Sequence record: PZ583740.1 | Direction: 5' to 3' (one strand) | DNA from: a phage | Length of the DNA: 27,851 nucleotides | Shown here: positions 6,171 through 24,169 of the stretch, piece after piece | How the letters are laid out: each line of letters starts with the position of its first letter | Position numbering within the stretch: position 1 is the stretch's first letter | The notes under the pieces: model-generated | The model's database searches: none | Seen by the model: only the letters and a program-made list of their open reading frames with translations | Told to the model about the DNA's origin: nothing | Made by a program: the position numbers and the translations under genes

Positions 6171-6178
6171 GGTTTCTT

Positions 6179-6451: not shown

Positions 6452-6459
6452 GGCTTCAA

Positions 6460-6732: not shown

Positions 6733-6757
6733 TATCCCATCAACTACTGGAGACCAC

Positions 6758-7041: not shown

Positions 7042-7070
7042 TATCCCATCAACTACTGAGGGCCAAAAAA

Positions 7071-7292
7071 ATGAAAACGTATCAAGAATTTATTAACGAA
7101 GCTAAAATGCATGACGAATTGCCGATTCAATCTAAAACTTTTGATGGTACACTGAAGGATTTTAAAAAGTTGCCAAATGATAAATTGGCAAAACTTACAG
7201 GTTCTGTATCTGAAACAGGTGGTAAGGTTACTTTCTCTGCCCGTGGTATTGTCAACCTTAAAAAACTTTTGAAAGCCGTTGGTGCTGAATAA
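7071..7292 (+). CDS. Internal protein (IP)-like, capsid-targeted small protein E
   Basis: 73 aa; N-terminus MKTYQEFINE-A; GAGGG RBS. Confidence 0.65.
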   Translation: MKTYQEFINEAKMHDELPIQSKTFDGTLKDFKKLPNDKLAKLTGSVSETGGKVTFSARGIVNLKKLLKAVGAE

Positions 7293-7350
7293 AACAGTTA
7301 CTGGTCTAGTATATCATAACCTAGACCTATCAAAAAGTGAGGAGAATAAA

Positions 7351-7536
7351 ATGAAACGTTGTGAATTAATTAGAAATGTTACTGCCTTTGTTGCTGTTAC
7401 CACTTTTGGTTTTAGCATGTTTGCTGGCTTTATGTTGAATATGCTTTCAACTTCTGAGAATATAATCTCTTTAGTAGTTGCATTTTTAATTGGTTCAATC
7501 TCTTTCGTTATGGATAAAATCTCTAAAGGTGAGTAA
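7351..7536 (+). CDS. Small predicted membrane protein (two hydrophobic helices), function unknown
   Basis: ATG at 7351 preceded by strong GAGGAG RBS; 61 aa with hydrophobic stretches [23 protein letters not shown] and [17 protein letters not shown]. Track ORF 7279..7536 starts at an upstream TTG. Confidence 0.5.
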
Positions 7537-7550
7537 AATGTATAAAGTGT

Positions 7551-8519
7551 ATGCGGATTATCAGAAAGATTCGCCTGCAAGGCTTCACCAGCGGTGAATG
7601 GGTAGCTCGCGAGAAGATTCATGGTACCAACTTTTCATTAATCATTGAACAAGACAATGTGACATGTGCGAAACGCACTGGACCTATCCTGCCTGCAGAA
7701 GATTTCTATGGTTATGAAATTGTATTAAAGAATTATGCTGATTCTATTAAATCTGTGCAGAAACTTTTGCAGGATATTAATTACCAGGCATACCAGATTT
7801 ATGGTGAGTTTGCCGGGGCAGGTATCCAGAAGAATGTGGATTACGGTGATAAAGATTTTTATGTATTTGATATCCGCGTTACTAAAGAAGATGGTTTTGA
7901 ATCCGTCCTGACTGACACCTTGATGGAAGCATTCTGTATTATCCATAAGTTTAAGGTTGCACCGCGCCTGGCTACAGGTAGTTTTGAAGAATTAATTAAG
8001 CTCCCTAATGACCTGGATTCTGTTGTCCCTGATTACAATTTTACAGTGGATAACGCGGGTTTGACTACAGCAAATACCACTGATTTTGTTGCAAAGGTGG
8101 AAGGTAAAGTATTCACTGCCGAAGGATTTGTATTAAAACCTGATGTTCCTGCATGGTTACCTAACGGCGAGCGTGTAGCGATTAAATGTAAGAACTCTAA
8201 ATTCAGTGAAAAGAAAAAGTCTGATAAGCCTATTAAGGCTGCAGTGGTTCTGAGCCAAAATGATATGGATTTACTGTGGAATTTCACTGATTATGTGACT
8301 GTTAACCGTATCAACAATGTTATCAGTAAAATTGGGGAAGTAACACCGAAGGATTTTGGAAAGGTAATGGGGTTAACAGTCCAAGATATTCTGGAAGAAG
8401 CGGGGCGCGAAGGTCTTGAATTGTCCCTGACGGAAAATCCTGTTGAAGTTAAAAAGCAACTTATTGTAAATGTAAGAGAAACATTAAGACATGTTTGGAT
8501 TGCATTAGTTAGTGAATAA
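7551..8519 (+). CDS. rnlB: RNA ligase 2 (Rnl2 / gp24.1)
   Basis: 322 aa with nucleotidyltransferase motif [20 protein letters not shown] and strong overall similarity to T4 Rnl2; true 5' end uncertain (ATG with good RBS at 7538 is in another frame). Confidence 0.85.
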
Positions 8520-8547
8520 AAATAAAGGGCCTTGCGGCCCTTTTTTA
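8520..8547. terminator. Bidirectional rho-independent terminator between rnlB and gene 24
   Basis: Hairpin GGGCC-TTGC-GGCCC (8527-8540) flanked by an A-run upstream and T6 downstream; lies between convergent stops. Confidence 0.7.
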
Positions 8548-9825
8548 ATTTATTTCAGTCAGAACTTTAGGAAGTTTCACACCAAGCAGTACAGACATAT
8601 CTGAACGTCCTGCCATCAAATCCATATTTGTTGCATCAATAATACGAGCTTGTTTATCATCAGCAGTCACTGTATAAGGGTTAGCTGCTAACGCATAACG
8701 AACCATTAATGCAATAGACGGCTGCAAACTTTCTGGGTCAACGACAACTTTGAACGAACCAACATGTTCAGGGTCTTCCAGGTCAAGACCTTCGGTATAA
8801 GGTGCATAAAACAGTGAACCCACCATCTCTTTCCCACCGAAATCTTCTTTAACACCAACAGTCACATAATCAAATGGAGTGTTCGTATCGCAATAAAGCG
8901 GTAGACCATTATCCAAGAAACCATACGCATTATCGGAGAGATATTTCTCATCTTGTGGACGATGCTTCAACCAACCAGAACCAGCCAAAACTGCAGCTAC
9001 ACGCGTAGAAGCAACAACGTATGTTGCGGTGTAAGAAGTTGCCCGCTGAATATGGGAGACCATCTCACACATGATTTCGTACAACTTGCGTGAAGCTTCC
9101 GGAGAGTTGGTATAAGACAGGTCAATCAGGCCATCATCACAGAGTCCAGCAACTTTATAACGCTTGGAAACTGTTACCAGGGATTGCAGGATATCTTTGT
9201 TAATTTCATCAGCCATTTCGGTAGCTAACAGGTCTTCCAGGAAGTTTGGAGCGTCAAAACCATTTGCTTCCAGGTCCTGGGCCAGTTCCACTGTAACAGT
9301 GCTTTTCAGCTTACGAGATTTAACCGGAGCATTCCATTTGTTAACCAAAAATTTAGCTTCGGCAATTTCGACTTCCTGTGGTCCTTCAAAACGTTCGGTG
9401 ATTGCAGCTTCGGACATAATACGGATGGTCAATTTAACCATCGCTTCTTGAAGCTGGTCATACTCATCGCCCGTTGCTCCAGCAAATGGAGTTGCTACCA
9501 GCGCTTTATAAACTACATTTTCAAACTGGAACAAATCGTCTTTAGCATAAACTGCGCCAGCAACAAAAACCGGAATGGTCGCACGGTCTTTTGCTGATAC
9601 TGCACCAGAATAGGTTGCACCAGTCTGGAAAGATAATTCATCTTTCTGAGTCAGGTATTTAAGACCGTATAATGCCGCCAGTGGCTGGGATGTGCGCTGT
9701 TGTGCTACTAAATCGGTGTAAATCAGTTTAGTTGTAGCTCTGGTTAAAGCTACTAGATTCGGTCGACCAATCGAAGAACTTGTGGTCGTGGTCGACTCTT
9801 TTAAGAGTTCGTTAATTTTAGCCAT
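8545..9825 (-). CDS. 24: Head vertex protein gp24
   Basis: 426 aa, MAKINELLKESTTTTSSSIGRPNLVALTRATTKLIYTDLVAQQRTSQPLAALYG...; gp23-paralog fold; matches T4 gp24. Confidence 0.85.
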   Translation of the reverse strand: MAKINELLKESTTTTSSSIGRPNLVALTRATTKLIYTDLVAQQRTSQPLAALYGLKYLTQKDELSFQTGATYSGAVSAKDRATIPVFVAGAVYAKDDLFQFENVVYKALVATPFAGATGDEYDQLQEAMVKLTIRIMSEAAITERFEGPQEVEIAEAKFLVNKWNAPVKSRKLKSTVTVELAQDLEANGFDAPNFLEDLLATEMADEINKDILQSLVTVSKRYKVAGLCDDGLIDLSYTNSPEASRKLYEIMCEMVSHIQRATSYTATYVVASTRVAAVLAGSGWLKHRPQDEKYLSDNAYGFLDNGLPLYCDTNTPFDYVTVGVKEDFGGKEMVGSLFYAPYTEGLDLEDPEHVGSFKVVVDPESLQPSIALMVRYALAANPYTVTADDKQARIIDATNMDLMAGRSDMSVLLGVKLPKVLTEIN

Positions 9826-9850
9826 TGCTATTTCCTTTTGTGATATACTT

Positions 9851-9858
9851 TATTTATA
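9851..9858 (-). promoter_or_regulatory. T4-type late promoter (TATAAATA on minus strand) for gene 24
   Basis: Reverse complement of 9851-9858 is TATAAATA, 25 nt upstream of the gp24 ATG. Confidence 0.55.
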
Positions 9859-9864
9859 AAAGTT

Positions 9865-9894
9865 GTTTACAACCAGATTAAGATAAGACATAAT
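9865..9894 (+). promoter_or_regulatory. T4-early-like promoter (GTTTAC, 18 nt spacer, CATAAT) for the plus-strand 93-aa ORF
   Basis: GTTTAC at 9865-9870 and CATAAT at 9889-9894; AT-rich upstream. Confidence 0.4.
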
Positions 9895-9935
9895 GATTCC
9901 ATACTGAGTTAACAAACAAAACCTGGAGTTTAAAA

Positions 9936-10217
9936 ATGAACAAAGCAACTTTCCTTCTGAACACCTTTAAAAATCTGGAAATTGAAGTTATTGCCTTGGT
10001 CAACAAATACCCAAATGGTGTTAATGGTAATGCTCTGAACAAACTAGTTAAAAAATATGAAAACTTAGCATATGACACTGATTTCTGGTGGAATGGTAAT
10101 TATTCTACTCACACTAAAGATAAAAATGGTAACTGGTTGAAACTTCAAGAAAACAATGTTAACTTCAGAGACCTTATCAAGCGCCGGGTAGAAGTTCATT
10201 TAAATGGTATGGTATGA
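9936..10217 (+). CDS. Hypothetical protein, opposite-strand gene between head genes 24 and 23
   Basis: 93 aa ORF with GGAG RBS 8 nt upstream of ATG, own promoter-like element and a downstream hairpin terminator; no recognisable motif. Confidence 0.5.
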   Translation: MNKATFLLNTFKNLEIEVIALVNKYPNGVNGNALNKLVKKYENLAYDTDFWWNGNYSTHTKDKNGNWLKLQENNVNFRDLIKRRVEVHLNGMV

Positions 10218-10224
10218 AAACAAG

Positions 10225-10252
10225 AAAGGGACCTCAAGGGTCCCTTTTTATT
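10225..10252. terminator. Bidirectional rho-independent terminator after gene 23 and after the 93-aa ORF
   Basis: Hairpin GGGACC-TCAAG-GGTCCC (10228-10244) followed by T-run on plus strand and T-rich tract on minus strand. Confidence 0.7.
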
Positions 10253-10267
10253 TAACTTAATCTAGGA

Positions 10268-11827
10268 TTAAATTCCTTTAACATATACGCGGCGGAAGTA
10301 ACCGTTCAAGCCAAGGCTGTTAACGATGTCCGGCATGCCGTTCTGAATGCGCTTGGTCGGAGCCTGAGCAGCAGGGTCAGCAAACGGGTTGATACCGATA
10401 CCGTAACGGGTTTTGAAGCCCATAACCGGCTGGAAGTTTTTCGGGTCAGAACCACGCAGCGGGGTCAGTGCAACATATGGTGCGTAGTAGATACCAGCAT
10501 CCATTTCGTTAGCGCCTTTGTAACCGATGGTGAAGTAATCTGCACGAGCATACTGGTCGATATAGACACGGTATTTGCCACCCAGAACACCAGCGAACAC
10601 AGCTTTAGTGGTGTCAACGTTGAAACCTTTACCCAGACCCTGAGCAGCATAACTAACAGAAGTATCAACAGCAGCCAGCACGTTAACTACGTTACGGGAA
10701 GCGATGATGAAGTTACCTGCACCACGACCGGTCTGACGAGCGATTTCAGCGGCTTCTTTATCAATCTGGAACAGTAAAGCTTTGAAGCTTTCACCAGCCC
10801 AACGAGCACCACGGATATCAATCGGGTCCTGGAAGTCAAACACACCAGCTTTAGCGCCAACGGTGTTGGTCATACCAGATTTACCAACCTGAGCGGAGTA
10901 GTTAATCCAATCGATAACTTCACGGTTGATTTCCAGCATAATTTCGGTAGCCAGAATACCACTCAATTCGGCATCAGCATCCATACCATGAACAGCGCGC
11001 AGGTCCTGTGCCAGTTCGATGGAGTAGCTTGCTTTCAGCTGACGGGATTTAGCTTCGATAACTTGTTTATCGATACGGAAGCCCATTTCGTTCCACGGGT
11101 TATCAGTAGAACCGTTAAAGCCTTCCTGCAATTCGGCGATAGAAGTAGCCATACCTTCAGCGATTTCTGCCAACTTACCAGCTTCGAGCAGTTTGGTAAC
11201 TTCAGCGTCAAGTTTAGCAGCATCAGTAGCACCAGCATCAACGGTTACAGCTTCAACAGCCTGGTAGTGTGCAGAACCGGTTGCTTCGAAGAAGTGAGAA
11301 TAAATTTTACCAACTTCCAGAACTTTGCTTGCAGCCAGTGCTTCAAAAGTCTGAGCAGCGCCCTGACCAGAGAACATAGCGTTCGGAGCATACATCGGAT
11401 GGAAAGCTTCTTTAGCACCAGCAGCGACAGGGTCTTTACCGTATACTGCACGCAGTGCAAATACCTGGCCAGTCGGGTTGTTCAGAGGCTGTACGCCACA
11501 AATATCAAACGCAATCAGATGCGGGATAGCACGACGAACCATACCCATAACTGCCGGCCCAATCTGAGTTACTGCACCAGAGGTCTGGCCAGCAGCGATA
11601 TTGGTAGCATCATAACCATGGTCACCACCGATTTCAGCTTCGGTCAGGAAAGAACCAAATGCTTCGGAGATTTTTTCGTCACGGTATTCAGGAGCGGTCA
11701 GAATATCTTGTTCCTGGTTTTCAAAGATTTTAGCGATGATAGCTTGTTTAGAAGCACCAACGATTTCAGGAAGAGCTTCGTTTTCCAGCAGAGCGGACCA
11801 TTTTTGAACTAATGCATTCTTTTTCAT
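10268..11827 (-). CDS. 23: Major capsid protein gp23
   Basis: 519 aa; near-identical stretches to T4 gp23 (AIIAKIFENQE, GAVTQIGPAVMGMVRRAIP, DPKNFQPVMGFKTRYGIGINPF, YFRRVYVKGI). Confidence 0.95.
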   Translation of the reverse strand: MKKNALVQKWSALLENEALPEIVGASKQAIIAKIFENQEQDILTAPEYRDEKISEAFGSFLTEAEIGGDHGYDATNIAAGQTSGAVTQIGPAVMGMVRRAIPHLIAFDICGVQPLNNPTGQVFALRAVYGKDPVAAGAKEAFHPMYAPNAMFSGQGAAQTFEALAASKVLEVGKIYSHFFEATGSAHYQAVEAVTVDAGATDAAKLDAEVTKLLEAGKLAEIAEGMATSIAELQEGFNGSTDNPWNEMGFRIDKQVIEAKSRQLKASYSIELAQDLRAVHGMDADAELSGILATEIMLEINREVIDWINYSAQVGKSGMTNTVGAKAGVFDFQDPIDIRGARWAGESFKALLFQIDKEAAEIARQTGRGAGNFIIASRNVVNVLAAVDTSVSYAAQGLGKGFNVDTTKAVFAGVLGGKYRVYIDQYARADYFTIGYKGANEMDAGIYYAPYVALTPLRGSDPKNFQPVMGFKTRYGIGINPFADPAAQAPTKRIQNGMPDIVNSLGLNGYFRRVYVKGI

Positions 11828-11848
11828 GTGTTGTATAACCTTATTAAA

Positions 11849-12667
11849 TTAAGAAATTCGTGATGCTGCGAGAGCAGACAAGTCCGCGAAGGACAGGGTA
11901 GGCTTGGCGCCTTTTTCTTCAACTGCTTCTGAAATGTAATTCAGTGCCGCAGCATCGTCTACATTTTTATTTATAGCGGCTTCGGTGATTGGTTTGTCGG
12001 TGGGTTCTACCTGACCTTTAACCATTTCAACGATAGCGCCAATTTTGGTACCGAATGCATCAGAGTATTCCATGCCTTCTACCAGAGAACCAACTTTTTC
12101 TTTCTGAGATTCAGTCAGGTCTTTAGTTGCTTCAGTCAACGCAACTTCACGTTGGACATAATTGATATAAGCATCACGCTTAGAAACTTCTTCGAACAGG
12201 TTAGCGGTTTCTTCTTTCTGTTCAGCCAGTTCTTCCTGCATTTCTGCAACAACATCGACAGATTCTTCCGGAACAACAACGTTGTGCTCAACGAACAGTT
12301 CTTTCATGCCGGTGAACATGGATTCGAACAGGTCAGCTTTAATGCCACGGTCGACAGCCAGTTTATTTTCAGCAAGCCATTCTTTAGCAACGTGGTCCAG
12401 GAATTTAGCTGCAGATTCTTTCAGTTTTTTCTCTGCTTTTTCGTCGGATTCTTCTTTATTCTTTTCGACTTCTTCTTCAGCTTTTTCAGCGATGGCGTGA
12501 ATGTGAGATTCTGCCAGTTTGATGGCGTGTTGCTTGACGGTAGCTTCGAATACAGTGCCGAAGGTAGCTTTCGCTTCCGGGGACAAATTAACTGATTCGA
12601 AAATACTATCGAGAGCAACGGAAGCATCGATATTCTGAGCTTCAGAAATGAGTTGTTCTTTAAGCAT
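11849..12667 (-). CDS. 22: Prohead core scaffold protein gp22
   Basis: 272 aa, highly acidic coiled-coil-like protein between genes 21 and 23, as in T4. Confidence 0.8.
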   Translation of the reverse strand: MLKEQLISEAQNIDASVALDSIFESVNLSPEAKATFGTVFEATVKQHAIKLAESHIHAIAEKAEEEVEKNKEESDEKAEKKLKESAAKFLDHVAKEWLAENKLAVDRGIKADLFESMFTGMKELFVEHNVVVPEESVDVVAEMQEELAEQKEETANLFEEVSKRDAYINYVQREVALTEATKDLTESQKEKVGSLVEGMEYSDAFGTKIGAIVEMVKGQVEPTDKPITEAAINKNVDDAAALNYISEAVEEKGAKPTLSFADLSALAASRIS

Positions 12668-12696
12668 TTTGTAGTCCTGTTGTTAAGATATACATT

Positions 12697-12704
12697 TATT
12701 TATA
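12697..12704 (-). promoter_or_regulatory. T4-type late promoter (TATAAATA on minus strand) for gene 22
   Basis: Reverse complement of 12697-12704 is TATAAATA, 29 nt upstream of the gp22 ATG; overlaps gp21 stop codon. Confidence 0.5.
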
Positions 12705-13338
12705 ACGTCTTTAAAGCCTCTGCGAGAGCCATAAAGGCGTCATCGGCACTGGTATCGGCAACAGCCGTTTGTGATTCTGTAATCTGCTTTGGTTTGACCC
12801 AAGCGTCCGGAGCACTTGGCCCCCATACTGCGTCTACTCCAACCGTCAATTTAAAACCTTCATTAACGATGTTATAACCTTTTGCTGATTTAGTCAGGGA
12901 ACCAAGTCCACGACTAGATACGCCAGGAATCCAACCTGCTCTTATATTCGCAGCAAGTTTATCACCTGGACCATGGTCGCCTTCTATAATACGTGCGCGG
13001 CCATATACATCATTCCCTTTCCACCACATTTCCTCGATAATAATTGCTGCCTGCATAGGGTCAACGTTTGCACGAGGTGGATGGTTTAATTCTCCAAGAG
13101 ACTGCTTGGTTTCAACCTGTTCGACGATATAGTCCGCAACAGCTTTTTCCAAAATATGTTTAGGATAAAGTCGTTTATTACGGTTAACAACTTCAGCTTG
13201 TAGGAAAATACCTTCAATATAAAGTCCTGGCTTTAAACCGCTGCTGGAACCATCATGAGATTCCAACATCGGTACACCATCTTTAATTTCGCCCGGTTGA
13301 CCCCAGTGTTCGATTAGTAACTCTGGTTTCTGTTCCAT
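12700..13338 (-). CDS. 21: Prohead protease gp21
   Basis: 212 aa, [21 protein letters not shown]...; same length as T4 gp21 and matching sequence. Confidence 0.85.
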   Translation of the reverse strand: MEQKPELLIEHWGQPGEIKDGVPMLESHDGSSSGLKPGLYIEGIFLQAEVVNRNKRLYPKHILEKAVADYIVEQVETKQSLGELNHPPRANVDPMQAAIIIEEMWWKGNDVYGRARIIEGDHGPGDKLAANIRAGWIPGVSSRGLGSLTKSAKGYNIVNEGFKLTVGVDAVWGPSAPDAWVKPKQITESQTAVADTSADDAFMALAEALKTL

Positions 13339-13766
13339 TAATCAAGTCCGAATGCTTTACGCTTAGCTCGAGCTTTTTTGCGCTTGCGCTCTGCTCTGAT
13401 TTGCGTAGATGGGTTTGCTCTTTTCGTTTTAGTAGCCAGACGGGCAATTTGACGACGTTTAGCTTTAGAAAGACCGGTTGTTTGGAAAGCATTACGCTTA
13501 CGAGTAGCTAGGTCTTTTGTGCGGGTTAACTCACCGCGAGACGATACATGTTTAACGATAAATTCGTTAAGCTGAACACCTTCATTCAGAGCGCCGATAA
13601 CCGTTGCTTTTTCGTATTCACCGGCTGCAAACATGTTTTCTACAATAATATTTATATCGTCTTTTTCTAAGGCTTCGGATAATGAATCAAATTGTCCCTG
13701 AGCTTCTTCGGAAACACTTTCAATGTTTTCAAGAGTTAATTCGTAATCATCAGGGATAATAAACAT
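13338..13766 (-). CDS. 68: Prohead core protein gp68
   Basis: 142 aa with basic C-terminal tail; position between 67 and 21 as in T4. Confidence 0.7.
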
Positions 13767-13993
13767 TATTCATCGTCCTCATCGTCAGATTCTTTTTTGT
13801 CTTTCTTTTCTGCTTTGCCGTCGTCCTTGCCTTCATCTTCTTTAGGCTCTTCGCCTTCAATCATGATGGAACGTGCAATTTCAATCTTACGTTCTTCAAT
13901 CAAACTACCGCATACTGGGCCAATGTTTTCAGCAAAATATTTGCGAACGGCTACGAGGTCGTTTGATTTAATGGCTTCAAATAAATCATCCAT
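13766..13993 (-). CDS. 67: Prohead core protein gp67
   Basis: 75 aa with acidic C-terminus; position immediately downstream of gene 20 as in T4. Confidence 0.7.
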
Positions 13994-15567
13994 TAGAAAT
14001 CCTCTTCTTCTTCTTCAGGGTTTTGGAAACGAGCCTCTTTGGACTCCAATTCAATTTGCTTAGCTTCTTGATTAATTTCTTCATCAGACATCTGGAGGAA
14101 ATCCTTCATAGCCGTTTGATGTGAAATATATTTACCGATAAACGGTTCAGCCATCGTTAGCATATTGATTCTGCGTTCCATGATTTCTGCATCTTTCATT
14201 TCGGTGAAATAGCTATCACGGTTGAACGTAACTTTAATATTATTTAGTTCCTTGTCCCATTCCTCTTCTGAAATAATTTTTTTCAGGATAAGGTTTGTTT
14301 TAAGCGGGTCGAGGAAAACTTCTTCAAATTTATTCTGTAGCTGTCGAATCCATTTAGAGAAATTCAATTCATCGCGAGTAATTGTCGCACCTGCATCAAA
14401 CATAACGCCGCTGTTCTGGTCGTTAGGGATACGAGATAATGGAATTCGGAGCGCCTGATATAGGTTGTTCTTAAACCAGCGAACATCGTCCATATCCGAC
14501 ATGCCTTGTGCACCCGGGAGTGTATCAACTTCAGTGACTGCTTTACCATCACGACGTTGCAACCAATAGTCTTCTGTCATTGACATGTTGTGCTGTTGGT
14601 TTTTGATTTTACCCGTAGTTGCATCATATACGACACGGTTTTTCATCGTGTTCATAATATGTTGCATGTGTGCTGCTGCTTTACGAGACGGCATATTCCC
14701 GGTATCGATATAAAAGACTCGGCGGTCTGGGGCACGAGTTATACGATAAATGACTAAAGCATCTTCTAATAGTTTTAATTGGTTTGCAGGTTTAATTGCT
14801 CGTTGCAAGTATCCGATGATATTCTTGCCACAACAATCGAGTAATCCAGAATGCGCATATACAATCGCCGCACGAGGAATTTTTATTTTAGTACCTGCTT
14901 CATATATACGACCATCGGCACAATAACTTTCATGGCCAGTATCGTATACAAAATATTCTCTGTAACCGTCGACAATTTTTGTACCGTTTTCCATGCGTGT
15001 AACGATTTCACGGATGAACTGGATTTGTCTTGGGTCAAGGCGACGAAGTTCTTGAACTCCATCTTTAAGTTTTGATGGGTTGATAATTTTGTGGAAGAAA
15101 ATTCGAGAATCCACATACCAACGTTTAAAGTGGTCAGAACCTTTGCGCTCGAAATTAAGGAGGTTATTGACTTCCGAGAATTCTTCGAGGATTCGGTCTT
15201 TAATTTTCTGACTAAATTCGGTAGCATCAAGGTTAAGAGCTACAACATCTTTACCGTCTTCAAAAACGATAGCATCAGACACAATTTCTTGCACTGCGTT
15301 ATCAACTTCATAATTATTTAGTAAGTTGCGGTAGGTGTCAATTAATTCCCTGGTATTTTTTACTTCAGGTTCATTGCTCCCGAACATCTGTTGCATCAAT
15401 GCATTATACGGGACGTTTTGTTCTTGTGACTCAATTTCACGAGCCCCATCATCAAACTTCGGCCCGGTCATTGACTCTAAATTATTTTTTTCTTGTTGCT
15501 TATATTCTTGTTCATCTTCTTTAGCCCAAGGCTTAAGAAAATTTAGTATTGTGTTAAAACCTGCCAT
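13993..15567 (-). CDS. 20: Portal vertex protein gp20
   Basis: 524 aa; long stretches matching T4 gp20 ([58 protein letters not shown]). Confidence 0.9.
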
Positions 15568-15595
15568 TAGAGTCTCCGAAGTTTGTCTATTACTT

Positions 15596-15603
15596 TATTT
15601 ATA
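15596..15603 (-). promoter_or_regulatory. T4-type late promoter (TATAAATA on minus strand) for gene 20
   Basis: Reverse complement of 15596-15603 is TATAAATA, 28 nt upstream of the gp20 ATG; overlaps the stop of the upstream endonuclease gene. Confidence 0.5.
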
Positions 15604-16186
15604 TTGGAGTTCGGGTACAATTTTTATGATATCGAACAATCGCAGAGCGAGTGGACTCCGTACCACATACGGGACAAATTGCACGAGGTAAATTTAATGA
15701 TTTTCCTTTATTTGGATGTTCTTTACCAAACATAGGATTATTTTCACCGCTCATTGCTTTAGAATGGTCTGGTCGTTTTCTTCCTGATAATGCTTTGGAT
15801 TGTCTTGGACGTTTAACACCAGTATTGCTTTTATTTCTTTTATCGATAGATTCCTGTGTCCAAACCTTACCTTTCATCGACATACCAAAAAATCCATTTG
15901 GTTGAGCTAATGACATATTTATATAGTTTGGTGATTTAACCACATTGTATAATTTTTGTACTCGTAATTCTTCTTCAATAGCTTCTTCGTGCGTATTAAA
16001 TGTTTTTAAGATACGAGTTTTAAACAACTGAGGATTATCACGTAATTCATTTTTCCAAATGGTTTTATATTTTTTAGAACCAACGGAACCATGATAATTT
16101 TCAGTTATTCGTTGAATAGTTGTCGAGCCGATGTAACGACGGGGAAGGAGATTCCCCGTATATACTGTAAGATAAGTGCAATACAT
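15599..16186 (-). CDS. GIY-YIG homing endonuclease (Seg-like)
   Basis: 195 aa; N-terminal YLTVYTGNLLPRRYIGST (GIY...YIG), NUMOD3-like repeats (SGRKRPDHSKAMSGENNPMFGK), C-terminal CPVCG...HKNC zinc finger; GGAG RBS. Confidence 0.8.
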   Translation of the reverse strand: MYCTYLTVYTGNLLPRRYIGSTTIQRITENYHGSVGSKKYKTIWKNELRDNPQLFKTRILKTFNTHEEAIEEELRVQKLYNVVKSPNYINMSLAQPNGFFGMSMKGKVWTQESIDKRNKSNTGVKRPRQSKALSGRKRPDHSKAMSGENNPMFGKEHPNKGKSLNLPRAICPVCGTESTRSAIVRYHKNCTRTPI

Positions 16187-16232
16187 TCAAATTTCTCCAC
16201 TTCATTGTTTGAATGTATTTATTATGTCACAA

Positions 16233-16598
16233 TTATTCCCACCAGTCAATTGCGAACGTCGCTTCGAACGTCTCAATCTCATTATTGGAGTCCCAATCCA
16301 TCTGGACTTCCCCAACGTTGGTTGGCCACATGCCGGTAATAACAACTTCTTTCGTAACGGTCTTGCCATCACGATGGAACTGGCGGACAGTAGCGGTTTT
16401 CTTATAATCAGCAGGAGCTGCACCGGTGATTTCGTTAGTCATACCGTGACACAGATTTTGCCAATCAACAATTGCTTGACGAACTTTATGAGCATCGTCG
16501 TTATAAATCGTAATAGTCCAGTCATCAAATGTACGGTCACCCGCCACGTTGATTTTACGGTTCATGTAACCGACCGGAACTTTTTCTACAATGCCGAT
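16233..16598 (-). pseudogene. 19: Tail tube protein gp19, 5'-truncated fragment (about 42 N-terminal codons missing)
   Basis: In-frame region ...IGIVEKVPVGYMNRKINVAGDRTFDDWT...NEIETFEATFAIDWWE matches T4 gp19 residues ~43-163; an in-frame TAA at 16599-16601 and the gp11 stop at 16636 leave no room for the N-terminus. Confidence 0.6.
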
Positions 16599-16635
16599 TT
16601 ATCGCTAATGTGTTTTAGCGTGTTAGTCGTTGTCA

Positions 16636-17301
16636 TTACGATACTCGCTTATAATGGTAAAGTGAAATTGCGCCATTTGCTGTGCCACCTGATAATGTCT
16701 GGGTTGAAGTTCCAAGATATTCCCATGAACCATAACCACCGCGCGGTTGCTGTGTAATAGTCTGGCTAAGCGTACAACCATATTGAGTGAAAGGTACAAA
16801 ATTATGGTTTTGGTAGTCGTTATATGTAATATTTAATATAGACTGGTCCACACTATCAATTGCAGAGCTTGACACAATTAAACTATCAGCAACAGCCGTC
16901 AGCAAAGCATCGTTAACCTTGGAAGCAACTAATACAGCCGAATCCCCGACAATAACCTCAACTGGAATACCAAAAATGAAAAATAAAACAGTATCACCAA
17001 CCCCAGCACCAGAAATAGAACCGGTGAATTTAATTTTATCCGACTGGCTGATTGCTGCCGGAGAAAGGTTATTTGTATTAGTAATTACACTACCAACTGG
17101 AAGCTCGTATCGAAATGCGATATCATCTATTGCGCTCTGAACTGTTGGGTAAAAAATACCTTCGGTTGTCTGTGTTGCGGATGGGCCGCCGATTGCTCGT
17201 TGACCCATAACAGCCGTAATATTTTTTGATGTATTTTGAAATTCTAAGCAACTAGCAAGGCGGGAAATTACTCCAGCCTTTTTATTCGTTAATGTTTTCA
17301 T
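16636..17301 (-). CDS. 11: Baseplate wedge / short-tail-fibre attachment protein gp11
   Basis: 221 aa, M..NKKAGVISRLA...YHYKRVS matches T4 gp11 start and end; start overlaps gp10 stop. Confidence 0.8.
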   Translation of the reverse strand: MKTLTNKKAGVISRLASCLEFQNTSKNITAVMGQRAIGGPSATQTTEGIFYPTVQSAIDDIAFRYELPVGSVITNTNNLSPAAISQSDKIKFTGSISGAGVGDTVLFFIFGIPVEVIVGDSAVLVASKVNDALLTAVADSLIVSSSAIDSVDQSILNITYNDYQNHNFVPFTQYGCTLSQTITQQPRGGYGSWEYLGTSTQTLSGGTANGAISLYHYKRVS

Positions 17302-19112
17302 TAAGCAATCCTTACCCAGCGATGAGCAATCAAATATGGAGGCATTGTATAAACCGGTTGAGCTTGAGGGTCTTGTGCCTGATTAATGGTGGCTTTATCT
17401 TCTCTGTATTTGGTATAAGCTGGACCTTGTGCATCTGGGTCTACCTGGCAACCGCCGACAACAATCGGACCATTATCATCAACAACTAATACTTTCTCAT
17501 CGGTTTCAAGTTTAGGTACGTTTATATCTTTAATATGAACTTCAACACTACCACCTGTGCCGCCTGCCGTCGCTTGTGGGTTACCACCAGAATCCAGGTC
17601 ATTATTGTTTGTATGGAAGTTTGAGGCAGGGTCGTCCGACCAGGCAACGATTACACGTTCTTTCAAACGTTTCCATGAACCGAATCCCATATAAGTAACC
17701 GGGTTATTCGGGTTAACCGTATTTTCGTAAATTGTACCGACCGGATAGAATAATTCAAAGATAGCGCCAACAGAAGATGGAACAACTTCCTGAAGACCGA
17801 CTGGTTCAACGTTCGGTGCAAACGGATTATCAAAATCTGTAATACGTACACGACCAGTTAAGCTCAATGTATTTCCCTGAGAAACATAAAGAGTGTCAGT
17901 CTCATCACGGATTTCATCCATGGTCATAGTTGTGCCGATATCGTTATTGTACCAAATGACCGACAGAATATCACCGTCTTCAAATTCACGATAAATGCTA
18001 ATACCTTCGATGCGGTTGTCATCATCAAATTGCAGCAAATAATCCTGGGTTGATTCAGACCAACTGCCACCATTTGCGCTACATTCTGCCGCAGTGGAAC
18101 CTTGCGCACCTTCGCAATAAAATACTGGAGTTCCTGCAGTCCCGGCTTGGTGTTGTAAAATACTGTTAATGAATACCTGACATGCATTTGGGTTAATTGG
18201 ACTACCCGGAGAAATACCAAGTTCTTCAATTGTAAAGGTGTGTTTGGTTGTCAAATCCGTAACAATCAAAGAACCATTAATTGTTGTTTCTTTGGTCCTG
18301 TCCTGACTACGAACAAGTACATCACGACGATTATACGAACTACGCCATTGTGCAATGCCATCATTAAATGTTCGGATGATAACCGTATCACCTTCAGCGC
18401 ATGGCATTTTCAGACGGATGCTTTTACCATCAAGCGCAACGATTTCACCAGGGTTTGCACCAGGGGAACCAAATTCAGCATTCACCGGGTCGAAAATATC
18501 ATCTTTACCATAAAACAGGTCGTTACCACGATGTTTGACTTCTAAGTTCGATACGCTATACGGAATAGCACCAAACACATTGATAAAGTCAGTTTGTCCT
18601 TCGGTAGCAATAAACTGTTGGGATGCAACTGTAGCAACGTCGTTATTTGAAATTTTATCGACTTGTTTATTATCGATATATTCCCAACGACCTGGTGAAC
18701 AATATACAAGTTCAAGGTCGGCTAAGTTGCGTTTAATTTCTACTGGATTTGGTGAGCCTTTAATCGTATCCCCGACTGCAGGAACAATTGTCACCGGGTT
18801 GATTTGCCAGGTAGCAAACACATCACGCAATCGAATTACATAATTGTATTCTTGAGTTGTTCCTTTCGGGAGGACGACTCGAACCGCACCGGCTGATGTA
18901 TCGATGGTATAGCTTCGACCCATAACAGCAGACAACTCGGTGCCTTCTTGTGTAGTCCAAGTTTTCCATGCACCAGCCGCATGAGGATTTTCACCATCAC
19001 CCAGCTGATAATAAAGGTCGTCAAAGTTATTGTTTATTTTTTGACCGCCGAGACGAAGGTAATCACCAGTACCATCATCAACCATATTGCCAATTTTTAA
19101 ATTCTGTTTCAT
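17301..19112 (-). CDS. 10: Baseplate wedge protein gp10
   Basis: 603 aa, MKQNLKIGNMVDDGTGDYLR...NPNNPVTYMGFGSWK...NNDLDSGGNP...AHRWVRIA matches T4 gp10. Confidence 0.9.
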   Translation of the reverse strand: MKQNLKIGNMVDDGTGDYLRLGGQKINNNFDDLYYQLGDGENPHAAGAWKTWTTQEGTELSAVMGRSYTIDTSAGAVRVVLPKGTTQEYNYVIRLRDVFATWQINPVTIVPAVGDTIKGSPNPVEIKRNLADLELVYCSPGRWEYIDNKQVDKISNNDVATVASQQFIATEGQTDFINVFGAIPYSVSNLEVKHRGNDLFYGKDDIFDPVNAEFGSPGANPGEIVALDGKSIRLKMPCAEGDTVIIRTFNDGIAQWRSSYNRRDVLVRSQDRTKETTINGSLIVTDLTTKHTFTIEELGISPGSPINPNACQVFINSILQHQAGTAGTPVFYCEGAQGSTAAECSANGGSWSESTQDYLLQFDDDNRIEGISIYREFEDGDILSVIWYNNDIGTTMTMDEIRDETDTLYVSQGNTLSLTGRVRITDFDNPFAPNVEPVGLQEVVPSSVGAIFELFYPVGTIYENTVNPNNPVTYMGFGSWKRLKERVIVAWSDDPASNFHTNNNDLDSGGNPQATAGGTGGSVEVHIKDINVPKLETDEKVLVVDDNGPIVVGGCQVDPDAQGPAYTKYREDKATINQAQDPQAQPVYTMPPYLIAHRWVRIA

Positions 19113-19981
19113 TATACCGGTACTCCGATTGTTTGGGCGGAAATTACTTTAATAGCGAGCTTCATGGCAGTGGGTGAGCTTATAGCCGCCTGAATGATAT
19201 CCTGGTTATCAATTCTAAAATCGATGGCATATATCTCATCTTCTTCATTAGTTTGTCCACGTCTGATTACAGCGTATTCTGTGCTATATACCTTGCGGTC
19301 CTTAAGGTCGATGTAAAGTAATATTTCTGATGCTTTGTATTTAGTTTCGTCTGTTGAAATAGCTGTCAGCATCAATTTGATAGTTTTATAATCTGCGCGG
19401 AAAGCAAGTGGAATATCACGAACAACCGAGCTCATATTGTATGTTTTGTCGAGCAATACAGATTGGTTGCCAAACATACTTTCAATTTTGTAGTCCCAGG
19501 TCCCTACGCCGTTAGCATCGTCAATACACCACAATGTAATTTTTGTATAAGGCTGAGTAAATTTCATTTTGTTCGTTGCAGCAGTCAGGAATGAATCCGT
19601 GCCTTGTAGTTCAACTTCCAGAGGCAACGAGGTGGATAATGAACCATTGGAGTTAATAAAGATAACACCTTCGCCTGCTTTACCTTTTGCAATTCTTGCA
19701 GTGATAACACCTTCGGCAGTATTGACATCTCGCATAGAACCGAGAGCAACAGTCGAGTTCCATTCGATGATATTTGTGGCTTTTTGATAGTAGCCAGTCG
19801 CATGAAGTACCTGGGAGTTTTCTCCATTGTTCACAGAGTACAGACGCTGGTCGCCGAATGTATTATACAAACTGTCTAAATCCACGTTCAGTTTACGACC
19901 GCCTTCATATAGAATATCACCGGTGCTGGCGTTACCAATCTCGCCGATGTCTACTAATAATTTTGGGGTTTGATTAATCAT
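19112..19981 (-). CDS. 9: Baseplate wedge / long-tail-fibre socket protein gp9
   Basis: 289 aa, ...GEIGNASTGDILYEGGRKLN...HATGYYQK matches T4 gp9. Confidence 0.85.
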   Translation of the reverse strand: MINQTPKLLVDIGEIGNASTGDILYEGGRKLNVDLDSLYNTFGDQRLYSVNNGENSQVLHATGYYQKATNIIEWNSTVALGSMRDVNTAEGVITARIAKGKAGEGVIFINSNGSLSTSLPLEVELQGTDSFLTAATNKMKFTQPYTKITLWCIDDANGVGTWDYKIESMFGNQSVLLDKTYNMSSVVRDIPLAFRADYKTIKLMLTAISTDETKYKASEILLYIDLKDRKVYSTEYAVIRRGQTNEEDEIYAIDFRIDNQDIIQAAISSPTAMKLAIKVISAQTIGVPV

Positions 19982-20008
19982 AGGTAAGCCTCGTTATTGA
20001 TATAGCTA

Positions 20009-20016
20009 TATTTATA
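20009..20016 (-). promoter_or_regulatory. T4-type late promoter (TATAAATA on minus strand) for gene 9
   Basis: Reverse complement of 20009-20016 is TATAAATA, 27 nt upstream of the gp9 ATG, with a GAGG RBS between. Confidence 0.55.
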
Positions 20017-20020
20017 GAAT

Positions 20021-20045
20021 AAAAAAGGGACCCGAAGGTCCCTTG
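20021..20045 (-). terminator. Rho-independent terminator immediately after gene 8
   Basis: On minus strand GGGACC-UUCG-GGUCCC followed by U6 (plus-strand A-run 20021-20026); sits just upstream of the gene 9 late promoter. Confidence 0.6.
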
Positions 20046-21050
20046 TTAGAATTCAAAAATAATGTTAACTTCTTCTGTCTGGTCCATTGCACGAATAATC
20101 GGTGGGCGGTTTTCCATATAAATCATTTCCCCGGAATGACGGTCCAAATCAATTGCATCGTAGTATTCTTTGATTGCTTTGATATTTGGGTCATTAGGAT
20201 GTACTTTAACTTCAAGTGGGTTGGATATAATCGACAGCTGGCGGAAGCCTTTGTTCCCTGGAAGACTGAACTCTGGGAAATAAATGGAATCCATAAATGC
20301 TTTAAATCTGATTGTATATCCTTTGATTCTGTATATTAAACCGAAATCATCTTGTTGCCAGCTGATATTGTCTTTGTAACCCCAACGTGATGGGTCTTCT
20401 TCAATTTCTTCAGGCCATGGAACAACAATATATTCGTTAGTACAACGGTTGATGGATACATCAGGTGGAATCTCATACAAATATTCCCAGAGATAACCAT
20501 CGCCCATATCGACTCGTCCTTCTGTATCACCAGTCCCAGCTGGAGCTCTCGTCGAGTTATATTCTGCAGTCCATTTACCACCGAGTTTTAAACACTCTTC
20601 TTTATTGATAATAGAATAAATGGAGCAGGTCCCAACATCAGGAACATCTACACAGCGATAAACCATCCAACCTTTACCAACATCAGTTCGGTTATACGGA
20701 GCACTGTTAGCTACAACAATTTCCCCTACCTGGAAGTTAAGCGGATTGGGATATCTGATATCGCCCCAGTCTTTACGTGGGACAACACAATCAAGCATTG
20801 ACTTATAAACTTTGACTGCACCCATCATATTTGTCCAAGTATCTTCAACACCTTGTGCCGTATCAACCGGATAAGGCGGGGCGAACCCCGGGTCATTCTC
20901 ATTTGATGCCCAGGGTTCAGCACGACCGAATGTTACATACATCGTATTCTGGTCGGGCTCGTTGCCAATCATTTTATAAAAGTTATACATTTTTTCAGTT
21001 CGAAATTTCGAGGTAATTATCGAACGATAAACTACAGATGAATTATTCAT
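20046..21050 (-). CDS. 8: Baseplate wedge protein gp8
   Basis: 334 aa, MNNSSVVYRSIITSKFRTEKM...CTNEYIVVPWPEE...GEMIYMENRPPII matches T4 gp8. Confidence 0.9.
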   Translation of the reverse strand: MNNSSVVYRSIITSKFRTEKMYNFYKMIGNEPDQNTMYVTFGRAEPWASNENDPGFAPPYPVDTAQGVEDTWTNMMGAVKVYKSMLDCVVPRKDWGDIRYPNPLNFQVGEIVVANSAPYNRTDVGKGWMVYRCVDVPDVGTCSIYSIINKEECLKLGGKWTAEYNSTRAPAGTGDTEGRVDMGDGYLWEYLYEIPPDVSINRCTNEYIVVPWPEEIEEDPSRWGYKDNISWQQDDFGLIYRIKGYTIRFKAFMDSIYFPEFSLPGNKGFRQLSIISNPLEVKVHPNDPNIKAIKEYYDAIDLDRHSGEMIYMENRPPIIRAMDQTEEVNIIFEF

Positions 21051-24000
21051 TTACCTTTACCTGTGTGGGGTCTTTCGGGTCGCGTGGATTACCAATATCA
21101 TCCTTAAGACGTTGATTAACCAAATTGCGCCAGTTCGCAAAAGTCACGGCAGACTGGTCAAACAATGGACTGTATTTTTTACGACGTTCAGACGGGAGAG
21201 TCCCATGAAAATCTGAAAAATCGTTTTCGGCGTCATAATCTGCTGGTAATGGGAACGGTAAACCTGCGTTAGGAGCAATATTATATACTGCTTCGCCTGT
21301 AACAGCATTATGCTCAATGTTTCCATCGGCTCCAATAACTGCGATACGGTCACACCATTCTGACGGAATACCCGACGACCAACGATAGTTGTTCAGTTTA
21401 TTGATAATGGTTTCTGTGTGTTTTAATGACAGACCAGCATTAACAAACATTGTCAATAATGTAATTCCAACGAATCCAAATCCAACCGGATGAACAAATC
21501 GCAATACGTCATTACGATAACGAGATGTCGGGAGACTTGATTTAATGGTCATTACATAGTAAGAACGATTTCGGTTGATATAATCGATGTTATTGCTAAG
21601 TAATTCTTTCCCGCGAACGCCCTGAACAATCATGCCTTCAAAGGAAGTCCTTTCGGATTTAATTTCTTGCCCAACAATAAAGCGACCAAGCAAGTTATGA
21701 ATCGTGATACGCCATCTCAATTTACCCTGTTTGTAGTCACGCTCCATATAGGTAACGTTACTGCGGCCAGTTGATGTGTAAATTGTTTGCCCAACAATAT
21801 CTTCGCTGATATTATCGGATTCGACGATTATGTCATACTCGGTTCCGTTCTTGGATTCAATATCGATTTCAACGTCTTCATTATATAACAATTTGAACAA
21901 AAATTTATAGGATGCTTCAGTCCCCTTAGTTGCCCAAAAATCAGACTGTCTTGCTTCAAAGAAACGAACTACTTCGTCGCGCTTGGTCTTTGACAAATAT
22001 ATGTTTCTTTTGTACATTTCGCTCCAAAGGTATTCCCATGCATCTTCCTCGCGCGGGTACTGGTTGCGAATTAAGTTCAAAAGGTTGTTATAATATGTAC
22101 CAGAGCCATCACTGATAAACTGCAAATAATATTCACAGAATTTTTCGAAGTTGCTATCCTGGAGCAAATAACTATCCGGAACCATCTTTGTTAAAAGAGG
22201 ACGCAAGTCCGGGTCTTTCTCTTGTTCATCATTATCCGGGGTCCATGGAATATCATGTTCCTGGTTCTGTAATTCTGCAGTGAACATAACTTCTTTCGGT
22301 TTCCAGATTAATCTAACTTCATCACGCATACGATAGTCGAATTCAAAATAACCAATAAGCTCACCAGTATTTTTATGTAACATAATACCCGAGGCATATT
22401 TTTTAAAGCCATTGAATTCGATGTTAGGAGAAGTAACTTTCACTTGACCTTTATTCCAGTATTCGTGCACAATACGTTCAGGGGATGAACCACCAAAGGT
22501 ATCGATAATCTTTTGATACAGCATGTCATTATATACAACCAGAGCTCTGTCTGATGTGGTAATCCAACAACGAGTATCATCACGGCGAGACCAGTTAAAG
22601 AACGGTTCAGCGTAATATGACATACGTCCAGGTTTAAACTCTTCCCAACCTGAATCTTTATTCGACCTAAAACTCATCATCAAATAATGCTTGTCATGTA
22701 TCCATTGTTCATCATACACATATTTGACTGCTTCGTTAACTTCTTCAGGATACTTAGCAGGGAGTTCGGTATCTGGCTCAACGGAATAACGGAAGTTACT
22801 TGAACTGATAAAAAGTTCAATTCCATCAGTTGACATGCTTGTGTAACCATGTTCAATACGGCGACGTTCATCCTCTGTATTACCAAAAACTCGTGTCCAT
22901 GTATCGGTATCGGTATTTAATTTATAAACGCCCTTTGATAATGAATCGACAACGTTTTCAGGCTTAGTCGGGTCTTGGCGTTCTTCCTTTACTTCACCCG
23001 TGATTAATGCAAACACTTCACCGTCAATTGAATCCATCTTGTAACAAACAGCTTTTGGGTTGCCGCTTATTGTGCTATATCCAGCTTCAAATAATTTTTC
23101 ACCGAATGTTGGAGAGTTAGGGTCATTATCAATTGGAGCATCAGAAGATTTAGCTTTGTATACACGGTCGCGGCCAGCAACGTAAATCATGGAATCGGTC
23201 GTAGTAATTGCTTCGGCAATTGTTGAGATATACGCCGGAAGTCTTGCGTATGTGCCAAATATTTCAATATCAAATCCGAGATTGATATCTGAACCAATTT
23301 TTGCAAATGTTATATCCTGAGAACTGAATCGAACATCATCAGCAGACCATCTTATGTCACTTGATTTACGACCGTAAAAAATTCGGTCATATCCGAGTAC
23401 ATAAGTTGTCGTATCTGATTGATAATAAATTGTGCGCGATACTGGGTTACCGATACGGTCATTAAACAATTTTACATAATACCAGTTCTGCCCTTTATCA
23501 TTGGAGACTTTGACAGTTGTCTGGAATCGTTCAAACAAATACAGTACACCACCGAGTTCAGCAATCATCGTACGATTAACATCGTTACATACTGGCTGAA
23601 TACTACCCTGAATTTCGTGATATTGGTCTTCTTTTAATACATAGTTTGAAATTGAAGACAAATGAGAATAGGCAGGAGTAAAGCTAAAATCTTCAGACAT
23701 CAGCGATGCCATAATTGCATCATTATTAAAGTTGATATAAGCCTGGTTATTGTTTGTGAATTTTTCTTCGATGAATTTATTTGTTAATGTAAACTCACGC
23801 ATGTGTTCAAATGTGTATGCGTTAGTTGCAAAGGTTTCAAATTCTTCGGTATAAACCCAATCAGATTGTTCAAAACCCATTGCTGCAACAGCAACACGCA
23901 TTTTGTAAAATGATACTGGACGAATAAAATCTTGTTCGAACCATTCATTGTCTGGAGTATAACCTAAATTCCTCCATAACAGATTTTCTTCTGGAATAGC

Positions 24001-24141: not shown

Positions 24142-24169
24142 GGTTTCCTTAAAAAGCCTCCGAAGAGGC

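Follow-up and report, generated by a model that had tools for sequence, protein, structure and literature searches.

In this study we describe a probable free-standing homing endonuclease gene in the spacer between genes 20 and 19 of a T4-like phage, within a 27,851-nucleotide (nt) stretch of DNA (sequence record PZ583740.1; the whole stretch is referred to as the window). The window comes from a T4-like coliphage of the genus Gaprivervirus and shares about 98% DNA identity with Escherichia phage vB_EcoM_RZ (RZ). The open reading frame (ORF) in question codes for a protein of 195 amino acids (aa). With a probability of roughly 0.85, and on the basis of sequence comparisons and a structural model, we assign it to the Seg-type GIY-YIG homing endonucleases, as a member of an unnamed lineage that appears to be specific to the 19/20 spacer of Straboviridae. 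An earlier interpretation made from the letters of the window alone (the sequence-only reading) had proposed a complete ORF for a GIY-YIG/NUMOD3/zinc-finger endonuclease between these two genes. Its coordinates, strand and neighbours were confirmed by ORF listing and Pfam searches (Table 1), and its type was backed by PHROG matches, by a profile alignment (hhalign) to T4 SegE, by an AlphaFold2 model and by the conserved residues described below. The same reading held that T4 lacks an endonuclease gene at this place, and this was also found to be the case: the 83-nt spacer between the end of T4 gene 19 (101123) and the start of gene 20 (101207) contains no ORF, the list of T4 homing endonucleases has none at 19/20 (Table 1 in PMC2988022), and a search of the literature for an endonuclease described at 19/20 found none. 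An Rfam scan of positions 15300-16700 gave no match and no intron-like RNA, and the gene is therefore considered free-standing.

Domain assignment was carried out with the single protein and with a profile of its family. The Pfam GIY-YIG match of the protein (PF01541/PF19835) had an E value of 0.028 and 15.1 bits, and did not reach the gathering threshold of 22.6 bits; the NUMOD3 match (E 0.0016) also stayed under its curated cut-off. The protein matched PHROG 10820 (E 3e-32) and PHROG 314, labelled 'homing endonuclease' (E 5e-26), and NCBIfam was matched as well. A search of a collection of 5.8 billion proteins returned 215 relatives, 103 of which were aligned to build the family profile. Residues Y9, Y18, G20, S21, Y31, G33, S37, E73 and N90 are invariant in this alignment, and position 26 is basic (R or K) in 84 of the 103 sequences, with R found in 29 of the 31 closest orthologues. 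These residues make up the superfamily pattern GIY...YIG...R...E...N together with the G-Y-x-G-S motif of Seg type. When compared with T4 SegE by hhalign, the profile aligned over the catalytic domain with 92.6% probability, and the catalytic residues coincided with the SegE motifs. Searching the PDB sequences with the 195-aa protein yielded only noise, and the family profile reached in the PDB only the NUMOD3 stretch of I-TevI (DNA-binding domain 1I3J, E 0.008). Because of this, the fold was established through structure prediction. The AlphaFold2 model, built on the family alignment, had a mean predicted local distance difference test score (pLDDT) of 85.7, rising to about 97 at residues 1-95; these residues form the alpha/beta fold of GIY-YIG nucleases, and the fold-search matches of the model were GIY-YIG proteins.

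The rest of the protein has the layout of a DNA-binding tail. NUMOD3 is present in 86 of the 103 family members. The C-terminus reads CPVC-x12-HKNC, with C171, C174 and H187 invariant in the 31 closest orthologues and either C190 or H189 as the fourth ligand. In the AlphaFold2 model this zinc knuckle is formed by two strands (168-170 and 177-179) and a helix (180-186), and some family members gave Pfam matches to zinc fingers of C2H2 type. No Pfam HNH family matched the protein or any of its 103 relatives. A helix-turn-helix was likewise found neither by Pfam in the same set nor in the model, which ends with the beta-beta-alpha knuckle (aa 168-186) and has nothing after it. From these sequences we infer that members of the lineage would act as nucleases, recognise a target site and have taken part in homing events.

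Orthologues with 52-78% aa identity were located in the same 19/20 spacer in eight other genera of Straboviridae, each beside an intact gene 19 product of about 163 aa. They are carried by Citrobacter phage Moon (Moonvirus; YP_009146620), QL01 and Bp7 (Dhakavirus; QL01 YP_009202902), PM2 (Mosugukvirus; YP_009211611), Konradin (Lazarusvirus, subfamily Twarogvirinae; YP_009885359), Entb_43 (Karamvirus), KP13MC5-5 (Jiaodavirus), Kosakonia phage 305 (Kanagawavirus; YP_010650148) and Aeromonas phage avDM12 (Chrysonvirus). Large metagenomic contigs also carry an orthologue between genes 19 and 20, and in relatives the genes on either side of it are both whole. A more distant paralogue of phage HX01 (42%) adjoins gene 39 instead, and a scan of IMG/VR found no close orthologue, the best match being partial and 56% identical. 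In public records the orthologues are called 'HNH endonuclease', 'hypothetical protein' or 'putative intron endonuclease'. The first of these labels, used in RefSeq NC_027331, NC_028847, NC_028940, NC_049479 and NC_070776, is wrong, since no HNH model matches any member and the fold matches GIY-YIG. The annotated start of the Konradin orthologue (MPRRYIG...) appears to lie about 13 codons too far downstream.

Within Gaprivervirus, none of the isolate records in the phage collection encodes the endonuclease, and RZ and SP18 have a 19/20 spacer of 57 nt. A protein 100% identical to that of the window was found in two independent Gaprivervirus assemblies derived from the SRA, and a 98% identical variant in a 77-kb contig. 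All three contigs have the normal gene order 13-14-15-16-17-18-19.1-19-endonuclease-20 with an intact 163-aa gp19. Apart from these unannotated SRA assemblies, the window is the first occurrence of the gene seen in a Gaprivervirus. A similar polymorphism exists in Karamvirus, where seven records carry the endonuclease gene and about 25 lack it, with flanks that are 93-98% identical.

In order to assess mobility, the divergence of the endonuclease was compared with that of its neighbours. The aa identities to the window were 78% for the endonuclease and 77% for gp20 in Moon, 74% and 77% in Entb_43, 72% and 76% in KP13MC5-5, 65% and 87% in QL01, 64% and 85% in PM2, and 62% and 83% in Kosakonia 305. 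The similarity ranking of the endonuclease thus disagrees with that of gp19 and gp20, which fits horizontal transfer by homing. Among the three Gaprivervirus carriers, the ORF showed 2, 1 and 7 mismatches per 588 nt versus 20, 30 and 33 per 1163 nt in the flanking genes 19 and 20, the ORF having diverged less than the sequence around it (Fisher p 0.012, 7e-5 and 0.028, respectively). Ratios of nonsynonymous to synonymous substitution (dN/dS) of 0.08-0.24 between genera point to purifying selection, these values being rough because synonymous divergence between genera is saturated. The GC content of the ORF is 34.5%, versus 40.0% for the window and 39-46% for the neighbouring genes. Presence or absence within two genera, low divergence of the ORF and the discordant ranking indicate that the gene has probably moved recently, and the sporadic distribution, discordant ranking, low divergence, low GC and purifying selection, taken together, fit homing.

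Comparison with the empty RZ allele by blastn delimited the inserted DNA (Table 1). New DNA begins right after the gene 19 TAA, and the gene 20 promoter box TATAAATAAAGT (15592-15603) is retained at the other end. The spacers of RZ and SP18 contain, after this promoter box, a GC-rich hairpin with a UUCG loop, ATGAGGCTTCGGCCTCAT, which is absent from the window. Karamvirus CC31, which has an empty allele, bears a similar UUCG hairpin before the gene 20 promoter, and it is lost in the Karamvirus carrier allele. The empty-spacer segments that carry these hairpins are 8556-8594 in RZ (L004), about 3269-3325 in SP18 (L002) and 401-460 in CC31 (L076). The carriers QL01, PM2 and Kosakonia 305, which form a subclade, keep the UUCG hairpin. 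Loss of the hairpin in carriers of these two genera is a hint that a target or immunity determinant may be situated in the 19/20 spacer. The candidate target would be the UUCG hairpin together with the gene 20 late-promoter region, and a cut is predicted at most a few tens of bp from the TAA-GTATAAATA-UUCG segment.

The expression signals of the cassette were also analysed. The T4 late-promoter consensus TATAAATA occurs 10 times in the window versus 2.4 expected, every copy being on the strand of the local genes. One copy is the late promoter of gene 20, which overlaps the endonuclease stop codon (Table 1), just as the sequence-only reading had stated. RZ and SP18, which lack the endonuclease, have the same box followed by the same AAGT directly after the gene 19 stop, and in most orthologues a box coincides with the stop codon or immediately follows it, Konradin being the exception. 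The endonuclease gene has a box of its own, AATAAATA, with one mismatch to TATAAATA; the homologous position is occupied by a perfect TATAAATA in QL01, PM2, Kosakonia 305, Konradin and avDM12. A further TATAAATA is formed by codons Y88-I89-N90, the last of which specifies the catalytic Asn. It is kept at the DNA level in QL01, PM2, Kosakonia 305 and the 77-kb contig (L007), and not in Moon, Entb_43 or KP13MC5-5. This internal copy is possibly a second promoter for gene 20, or else a by-product of the coding sequence.

The start codon of the endonuclease gene falls within a predicted hairpin. Its 5' arm ATACATTCAAA, made of the last 3 nt of the gene's own box and the following eight, is perfectly complementary to the 3' arm TTTGAATGTAT, which contains the start codon. 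The stem has 11-12 bp, with a predicted energy between -9.6 and -15.9 kcal/mol, according to the stretch used for folding, and z scores of -2.4 to -2.6 relative to shuffled controls. An equivalent hairpin was predicted in all eight orthologues folded alongside (z -2.0 to -4.0 over the nine sequences), with the AUG paired in eight of the nine and the Shine-Dalgarno sequence (SD) in one, KP13MC5-5. The arms in Konradin and KP13MC5-5 have quite different sequences and retain pairing. Conservation was judged by folding each sequence with its shuffles and not by a column-wise count of covariation, because between clades the arms are either almost the same or too different to be aligned. Transcripts from T4 late promoters start about 6 nt after the box. 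With this geometry, the predicted folds have the start region sequestered and the box placed in such a way that the gene's own transcript would lack the 5' arm, as in the arrangement of I-TevI, segB and mobE. Under this model, the hairpin would prevent endonuclease from being made on the abundant gene 18-19 mRNA, and would thereby limit its amount rather than its timing.

On these grounds the following mechanism can be proposed. In a mixed infection with a relative lacking the gene, the enzyme would cut the empty 19/20 spacer or a nearby site, and recombinational repair would copy the cassette of about 0.65 kb from the carrier genome. The cassette would bring its own weak late promoter to a position directly behind the gene 19 stop. 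The start codon would be locked in the hairpin, the 5' arm of which overlaps the cassette promoter, and read-through mRNA from genes 18-19 should therefore stay untranslated; translation would take place only from the short transcript begun at the cassette's own promoter. Since the cassette retains the gene 20 late promoter at its 3' end, overlapping the stop codon, portal expression would be preserved. Both promoter use and translational control are deduced here from sequence features and would have to be understood as predicted.

Several points weigh against the endonuclease assignment or the homing scenario, to which the roughness of the dN/dS values has to be added. The GIY-YIG and SegE_GIY-YIG models of Pfam pick up just 3-4 of the 103 family members at E <= 0.01; with so few members detected and the domain so divergent, the assignment rests on fold prediction and profile alignment. 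A co-conversion tract was looked for, and no carrier-specific cluster of substitutions was found in genes 19 and 20 near the cassette or near the break in gene 19 (junction J2, see below), the background divergence being 1-3% and no variant being confined to the carriers. The box AATAAATA occurs at chance frequency in the window. In avDM12, the tenth orthologue folded, a strong hairpin was predicted away from the ribosome-binding site. Finally, the upstream genes 18 and 19 belong to the late genes too, and the hairpin therefore provides no early-versus-late timing of the kind seen in I-TevI and can at most limit dosage.

Some of these points would suit an alternative in which the ORF, as a relic, has decayed or been domesticated and has ceased to work as a mobile nuclease, serving for instance to regulate the gene 20 promoter by binding DNA. 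The divergence of the GIY-YIG domain is such that Pfam hardly finds it, the lineage persists at a single locus over distant genera, two late-promoter boxes flank the cassette, and I-TevI itself has a second role in repressing its own late promoter (PMC2988022). Decay is difficult to reconcile with the conservation of the canonical catalytic positions in the 103 sequences (Y9, Y18, G20, E73 and N90 invariant, and a basic residue at position 26 in most), and the polymorphism within two genera, the divergence below that of the flanks and the discordant ranking speak for recent mobility. We thus regard a relic as improbable and retain the interpretation of an active Seg-type homing endonuclease as the likely one.

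The gene 19 copy that adjoins the endonuclease is truncated, as the sequence-only reading had noticed: 129 nt coding for the N-terminus are missing, and the remnant is 98% identical to RZ gp19 (L004 8595-8957). The 110-aa ORF at 16233-16565 covers gp19 only in its C-terminal two-thirds, matching positions 39-133 of the 134-position Pfam profile Phage_T4_gp19, and upstream of it the window has gp11 and gp10 instead of gp18. On the other side, gp20 of the window is 99.8% identical in aa to that of RZ across the first 466 residues. Alignment to RZ resolved the window into three collinear blocks (Table 1), all in one orientation, in the cyclic order of the reference and about 98% identical to it. 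At junction J2, the window lacks about 11.8 kb of RZ, which hold genes 12, wac, 13-18 and 19.1 as well as the first part of gene 19. At junction J1, which is also blunt, lies inside coding sequence about 8 kb away and has no endonuclease gene adjoining, about 131 kb of the circular RZ map are skipped and a fusion ORF of 322 aa results (7551-8519). No microhomology was found at J1 or J2. Gene 5 contains both ends of the window (1 and 27851), which are separated by 1087 nt of the RZ gene that the window lacks. Given these ends and the cyclic order, the window resembles either a slice of a circle or tandem repeat of about 29 kb, or a reference-ordered scaffold joined without Ns. A carrier contig (L005) matches the window at 97.9% up to position 16595 and then continues with the rest of gene 19. 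Sequences of 30-32 nt across J1 and J2 were absent from IMG/VR; that of J2 was absent from all four public contig collections tried, including metagenome and genome contigs; the J2 region found nothing in plasmid and E. coli genome collections; and neither the rnlB fusion ORF nor the truncated gp19 ORF was on record in the collections searched.

The truncation of gene 19 is a feature separate from the endonuclease, and it was probably produced by the joining of separate sequence blocks, through reference-ordered scaffolding or a chimeric template. A less likely origin, which still deserves consideration, is that the truncation and J1 are real in vivo deletions unrelated to the endonuclease, and that the window is part of a defective Gaprivervirus mini-genome of about 29 kb, circular or concatemeric. 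The co-oriented blocks in cyclic order, with window ends 1087 nt apart in gene 5, are what a slice of a circle or tandem repeat predicts; every block is about 98% identical to one reference phage, and junctions without shared k-mers are unlike a misassembly of de Bruijn-graph type. Reference-guided ordering of contigs, joined without Ns, would give the same picture. Illegitimate recombination in T4 usually makes use of short homologies, which neither junction has, and neither the junctions nor the fusion ORFs turned up in any public collection searched. The joining of separate blocks was therefore preferred over such deletions.

The sequence-only reading had further raised the possibility that endonuclease activity contributed to the rearrangement. 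In the form considered here, a cut in gene 19 followed by faulty repair would have given the break at J2. The break does fall in the gene adjoining the cassette, and the targets of SegF, SegG and SegE are in the neighbouring genes 56, 32 and uvsW (Table 1 in PMC2988022); since free-standing Seg enzymes can cut at a distance from the genes that encode them, cleavage 363 nt into gene 19 would not be absurd. The identical protein, its near-identical variants and all orthologues examined adjoin an intact gene 19, genomes with a homing endonuclease gene usually resist cleavage by the enzyme that they encode, and gene 19 shows no consistent difference between carriers and non-carriers near the break. 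J2 has no microhomology at all, J1 is blunt with no endonuclease gene beside it, and the ends in gene 5 constitute a third discontinuity, so that one cut does not suffice as an explanation. Moreover, the missing genes 12, wac and 13-18 are essential, and the product would therefore not be a viable genome. Comparison of the 19-20 interval in relatives, which had been suggested as a check, gave a divided answer: the same gene stands beside an intact gene 19 in many of them, although not in all, the closest isolates being without the gene. In view of the identical protein beside an intact gene 19, the blunt J2, the second junction and the three blocks, a contribution of the endonuclease is not supported and is considered highly improbable. 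Equally remote is that the break is a real deletion endpoint at a distant endonuclease cleavage site (about 360 nt off) in a replicating or packaged mini-genome of about 29 kb, which, if true, would be a case in which a homing endonuclease drives the rearrangement of a T4-like phage genome on a large scale. A milder possibility of this speculative kind is that the 19/20 lineage constitutes a distinct Seg subfamily that targets the UUCG hairpin and the late-promoter region of the portal gene, and that also represses that promoter.

Table 1. Position of the endonuclease gene, its signals and the surrounding features in the window
Feature	Coordinates	Strand	Remarks
Endonuclease ORF	15599..16186	-	195 aa; ATG start (16186), TAA stop 15601-15599; from ORF listing
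Divergent GIY-YIG catalytic domain, aa 1-95	15902..16186	-	
Basic linker with NUMOD3-like DNA-binding repeats, aa ~120-160	15707..15829	-	Pfam NUMOD3 at aa 142-157
C-terminal zinc knuckle C171-x2-C174-x12-H187-x2-C190	15611..15685	-	Predicted beta-beta-alpha
Gene 20 late promoter TATAAATA	15596..15603	-	Overlaps endonuclease TAA 15601-15599; 29 nt upstream of gene 20 ATG
Endonuclease gene's own late-promoter box AATAAATA	16216..16223	-	8 nt past gene 19 stop
Internal TATAAATA, codons Y88-I89-N90	15916..15923	-	
Predicted hairpin	16181..16218	-	5' arm 16218-16208; 3' arm 16191-16181 with AUG 16186-16184; SD GGAG 16198-16195 in loop
Stretch without blastn alignment to RZ allele	15586..16232	-	647 nt versus 39 nt in RZ
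Gene 20 (portal), intact, downstream of cassette	13993..15567	-	Pfam Portal_T4 E 1e-191; SD GGAG 15577-15574
Gene 19 (tail tube) remnant	16233..16595	-	Last 363 nt (codons 44-163 and stop)
Block 1	1-7564		RZ gene 5 (start) to internal-protein genes; holds 658-nt HNH endonuclease insertion 3066-3723
Block 2	7565-16595		RZ rnlB to 3' 363 nt of gene 19; holds 19/20 cassette
Block 3	16596-27851		RZ gene 12 nt 41 back through genes 11-6 to gene 5 end; holds second GIY-YIG insertion 26118-26791
Junction J1	7564/7565		First 26 nt of small ORF (homologue of RZ PP428_gp172) fused to rnlB at about nt 54
Junction J2	16595/16596		Gene 19 nt 130 meets gene 12 nt 41; blunt, out of frame, 363 nt from cassette

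Two other endonuclease genes are inserted in the window. The first, between genes 2 and 3 (3053-3727, plus strand), codes for a 224-aa mob-like homing endonuclease of HNH type (PHROG 655, E 2e-56); it is absent from RZ and has 97-99% nt identity to copies in P479, VR25, UPEC07 and others. The second, between gene 5.4 (PAAR) and gene 6 (26116-26793, minus strand, 32% GC), codes for a 225-aa GIY-YIG protein similar to SegA/SegE, with 41% identity to T4 SegE and a TIGR01453 match at E 8e-14. It is also absent from RZ and is present in VR26, where it is annotated as segA, and in CLB_P2; its site differs from that of T4 segC (5.1/5.3). RZ encodes a SegF-like endonuclease between genes 13 and 14 (L004 15971-16606) and, between genes 18 and 19, a 201-aa ORF named gp19.1 (L004 9282-9887) that is also found in L005 and L006. 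The latter was considered as a paralogue of the endonuclease and rejected, as it has no similarity to endonucleases. The gap at J2 accounts for the absence of these two regions from the window. In the related 77-kb contig (L007; Logan SRR28497688), the large-terminase gene 17 is in three pieces of 297, 240 and 369 aa (2593-6557), split by two ORFs, one of 199 aa with TnsA-like and endonuclease I-like matches and another of 236 aa without match, and an extra gp24-like gene lies behind gene 24.

The novelty of the present finding is limited to the presence of the gene in Gaprivervirus and to the recognition of a 19/20-specific lineage with conserved promoter-in-hairpin control. This lineage of Seg type is spread over at least nine genera of Straboviridae and has been consistently mislabelled. 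The existence of carrier and non-carrier alleles within single genera makes the target site, at a junction of essential structural genes, directly testable, and the conserved promoter-in-hairpin layout is a further example of the solution seen in I-TevI, segB and mobE. The truncated gene 19 should not be read as an endonuclease-driven rearrangement, the window being a mosaic of three blocks. The practical value is modest, as this is an ordinary mobile element that already sits at the same spot in other phage genera.

The closest known counterparts of the window gene are the unnamed 19/20 orthologues of Moon, QL01, PM2, Kosakonia 305, Konradin and others, which belong to different genera from the window phage and share with it the family, the locus and the orientation. 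As here, they have a late-promoter box upstream; the hairpin is shared by all except avDM12, and a further box coincides with or follows the stop codon in all except Konradin. Among the T4 enzymes, the best BLASTP match is SegE (35% identity over 125 aa, E 3e-7), with which the protein shares an N-terminal GIY-YIG domain bearing the Seg signature (Y-x-Y...YIG...G-Y-x-G-S). Like SegE and the SegA-E group in general, the gene is free-standing, intergenic, co-oriented with its neighbours and sporadic among close relatives. It is nevertheless the orthologue of none of the T4 Segs: the others match at E >= 0.005, with I-TevI and I-TevII also much weaker, and the window gene occupies the 19/20 spacer, empty in T4, ends in a C2HC zinc knuckle and has a catalytic domain below the Pfam cut-offs. 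Promoters of downstream genes lie inside several T4 seg and mob genes (PMC2988022), and the position of the gene 20 promoter at the endonuclease stop matches this arrangement.

I-TevI has in common with the window endonuclease a modular organization consisting of nuclease, flexible linker, NUMOD3-type element and zinc finger, although sequence similarity is limited to the NUMOD3 stretch. I-TevI is encoded in an intron, whereas the window gene is intergenic and without intron. Its finger is of Cys4 type and sits in the linker ahead of a helix-turn-helix, whereas that of the window protein is C2HC and lies at the very C-terminus, with no predicted helix-turn-helix. In I-TevI, a late promoter is located in a hairpin that sequesters the translation start (PMC2988022), and the same is predicted for the window gene. 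The segB gene and Aeh1 mobE are also free-standing genes, in which the ribosome-binding site is held in a hairpin and the late promoter lets late transcripts escape (PMC2988022). They differ in that the read-through transcripts upstream of the window gene, from genes 18 and 19, are already late, so that here the hairpin would limit the amount of endonuclease.

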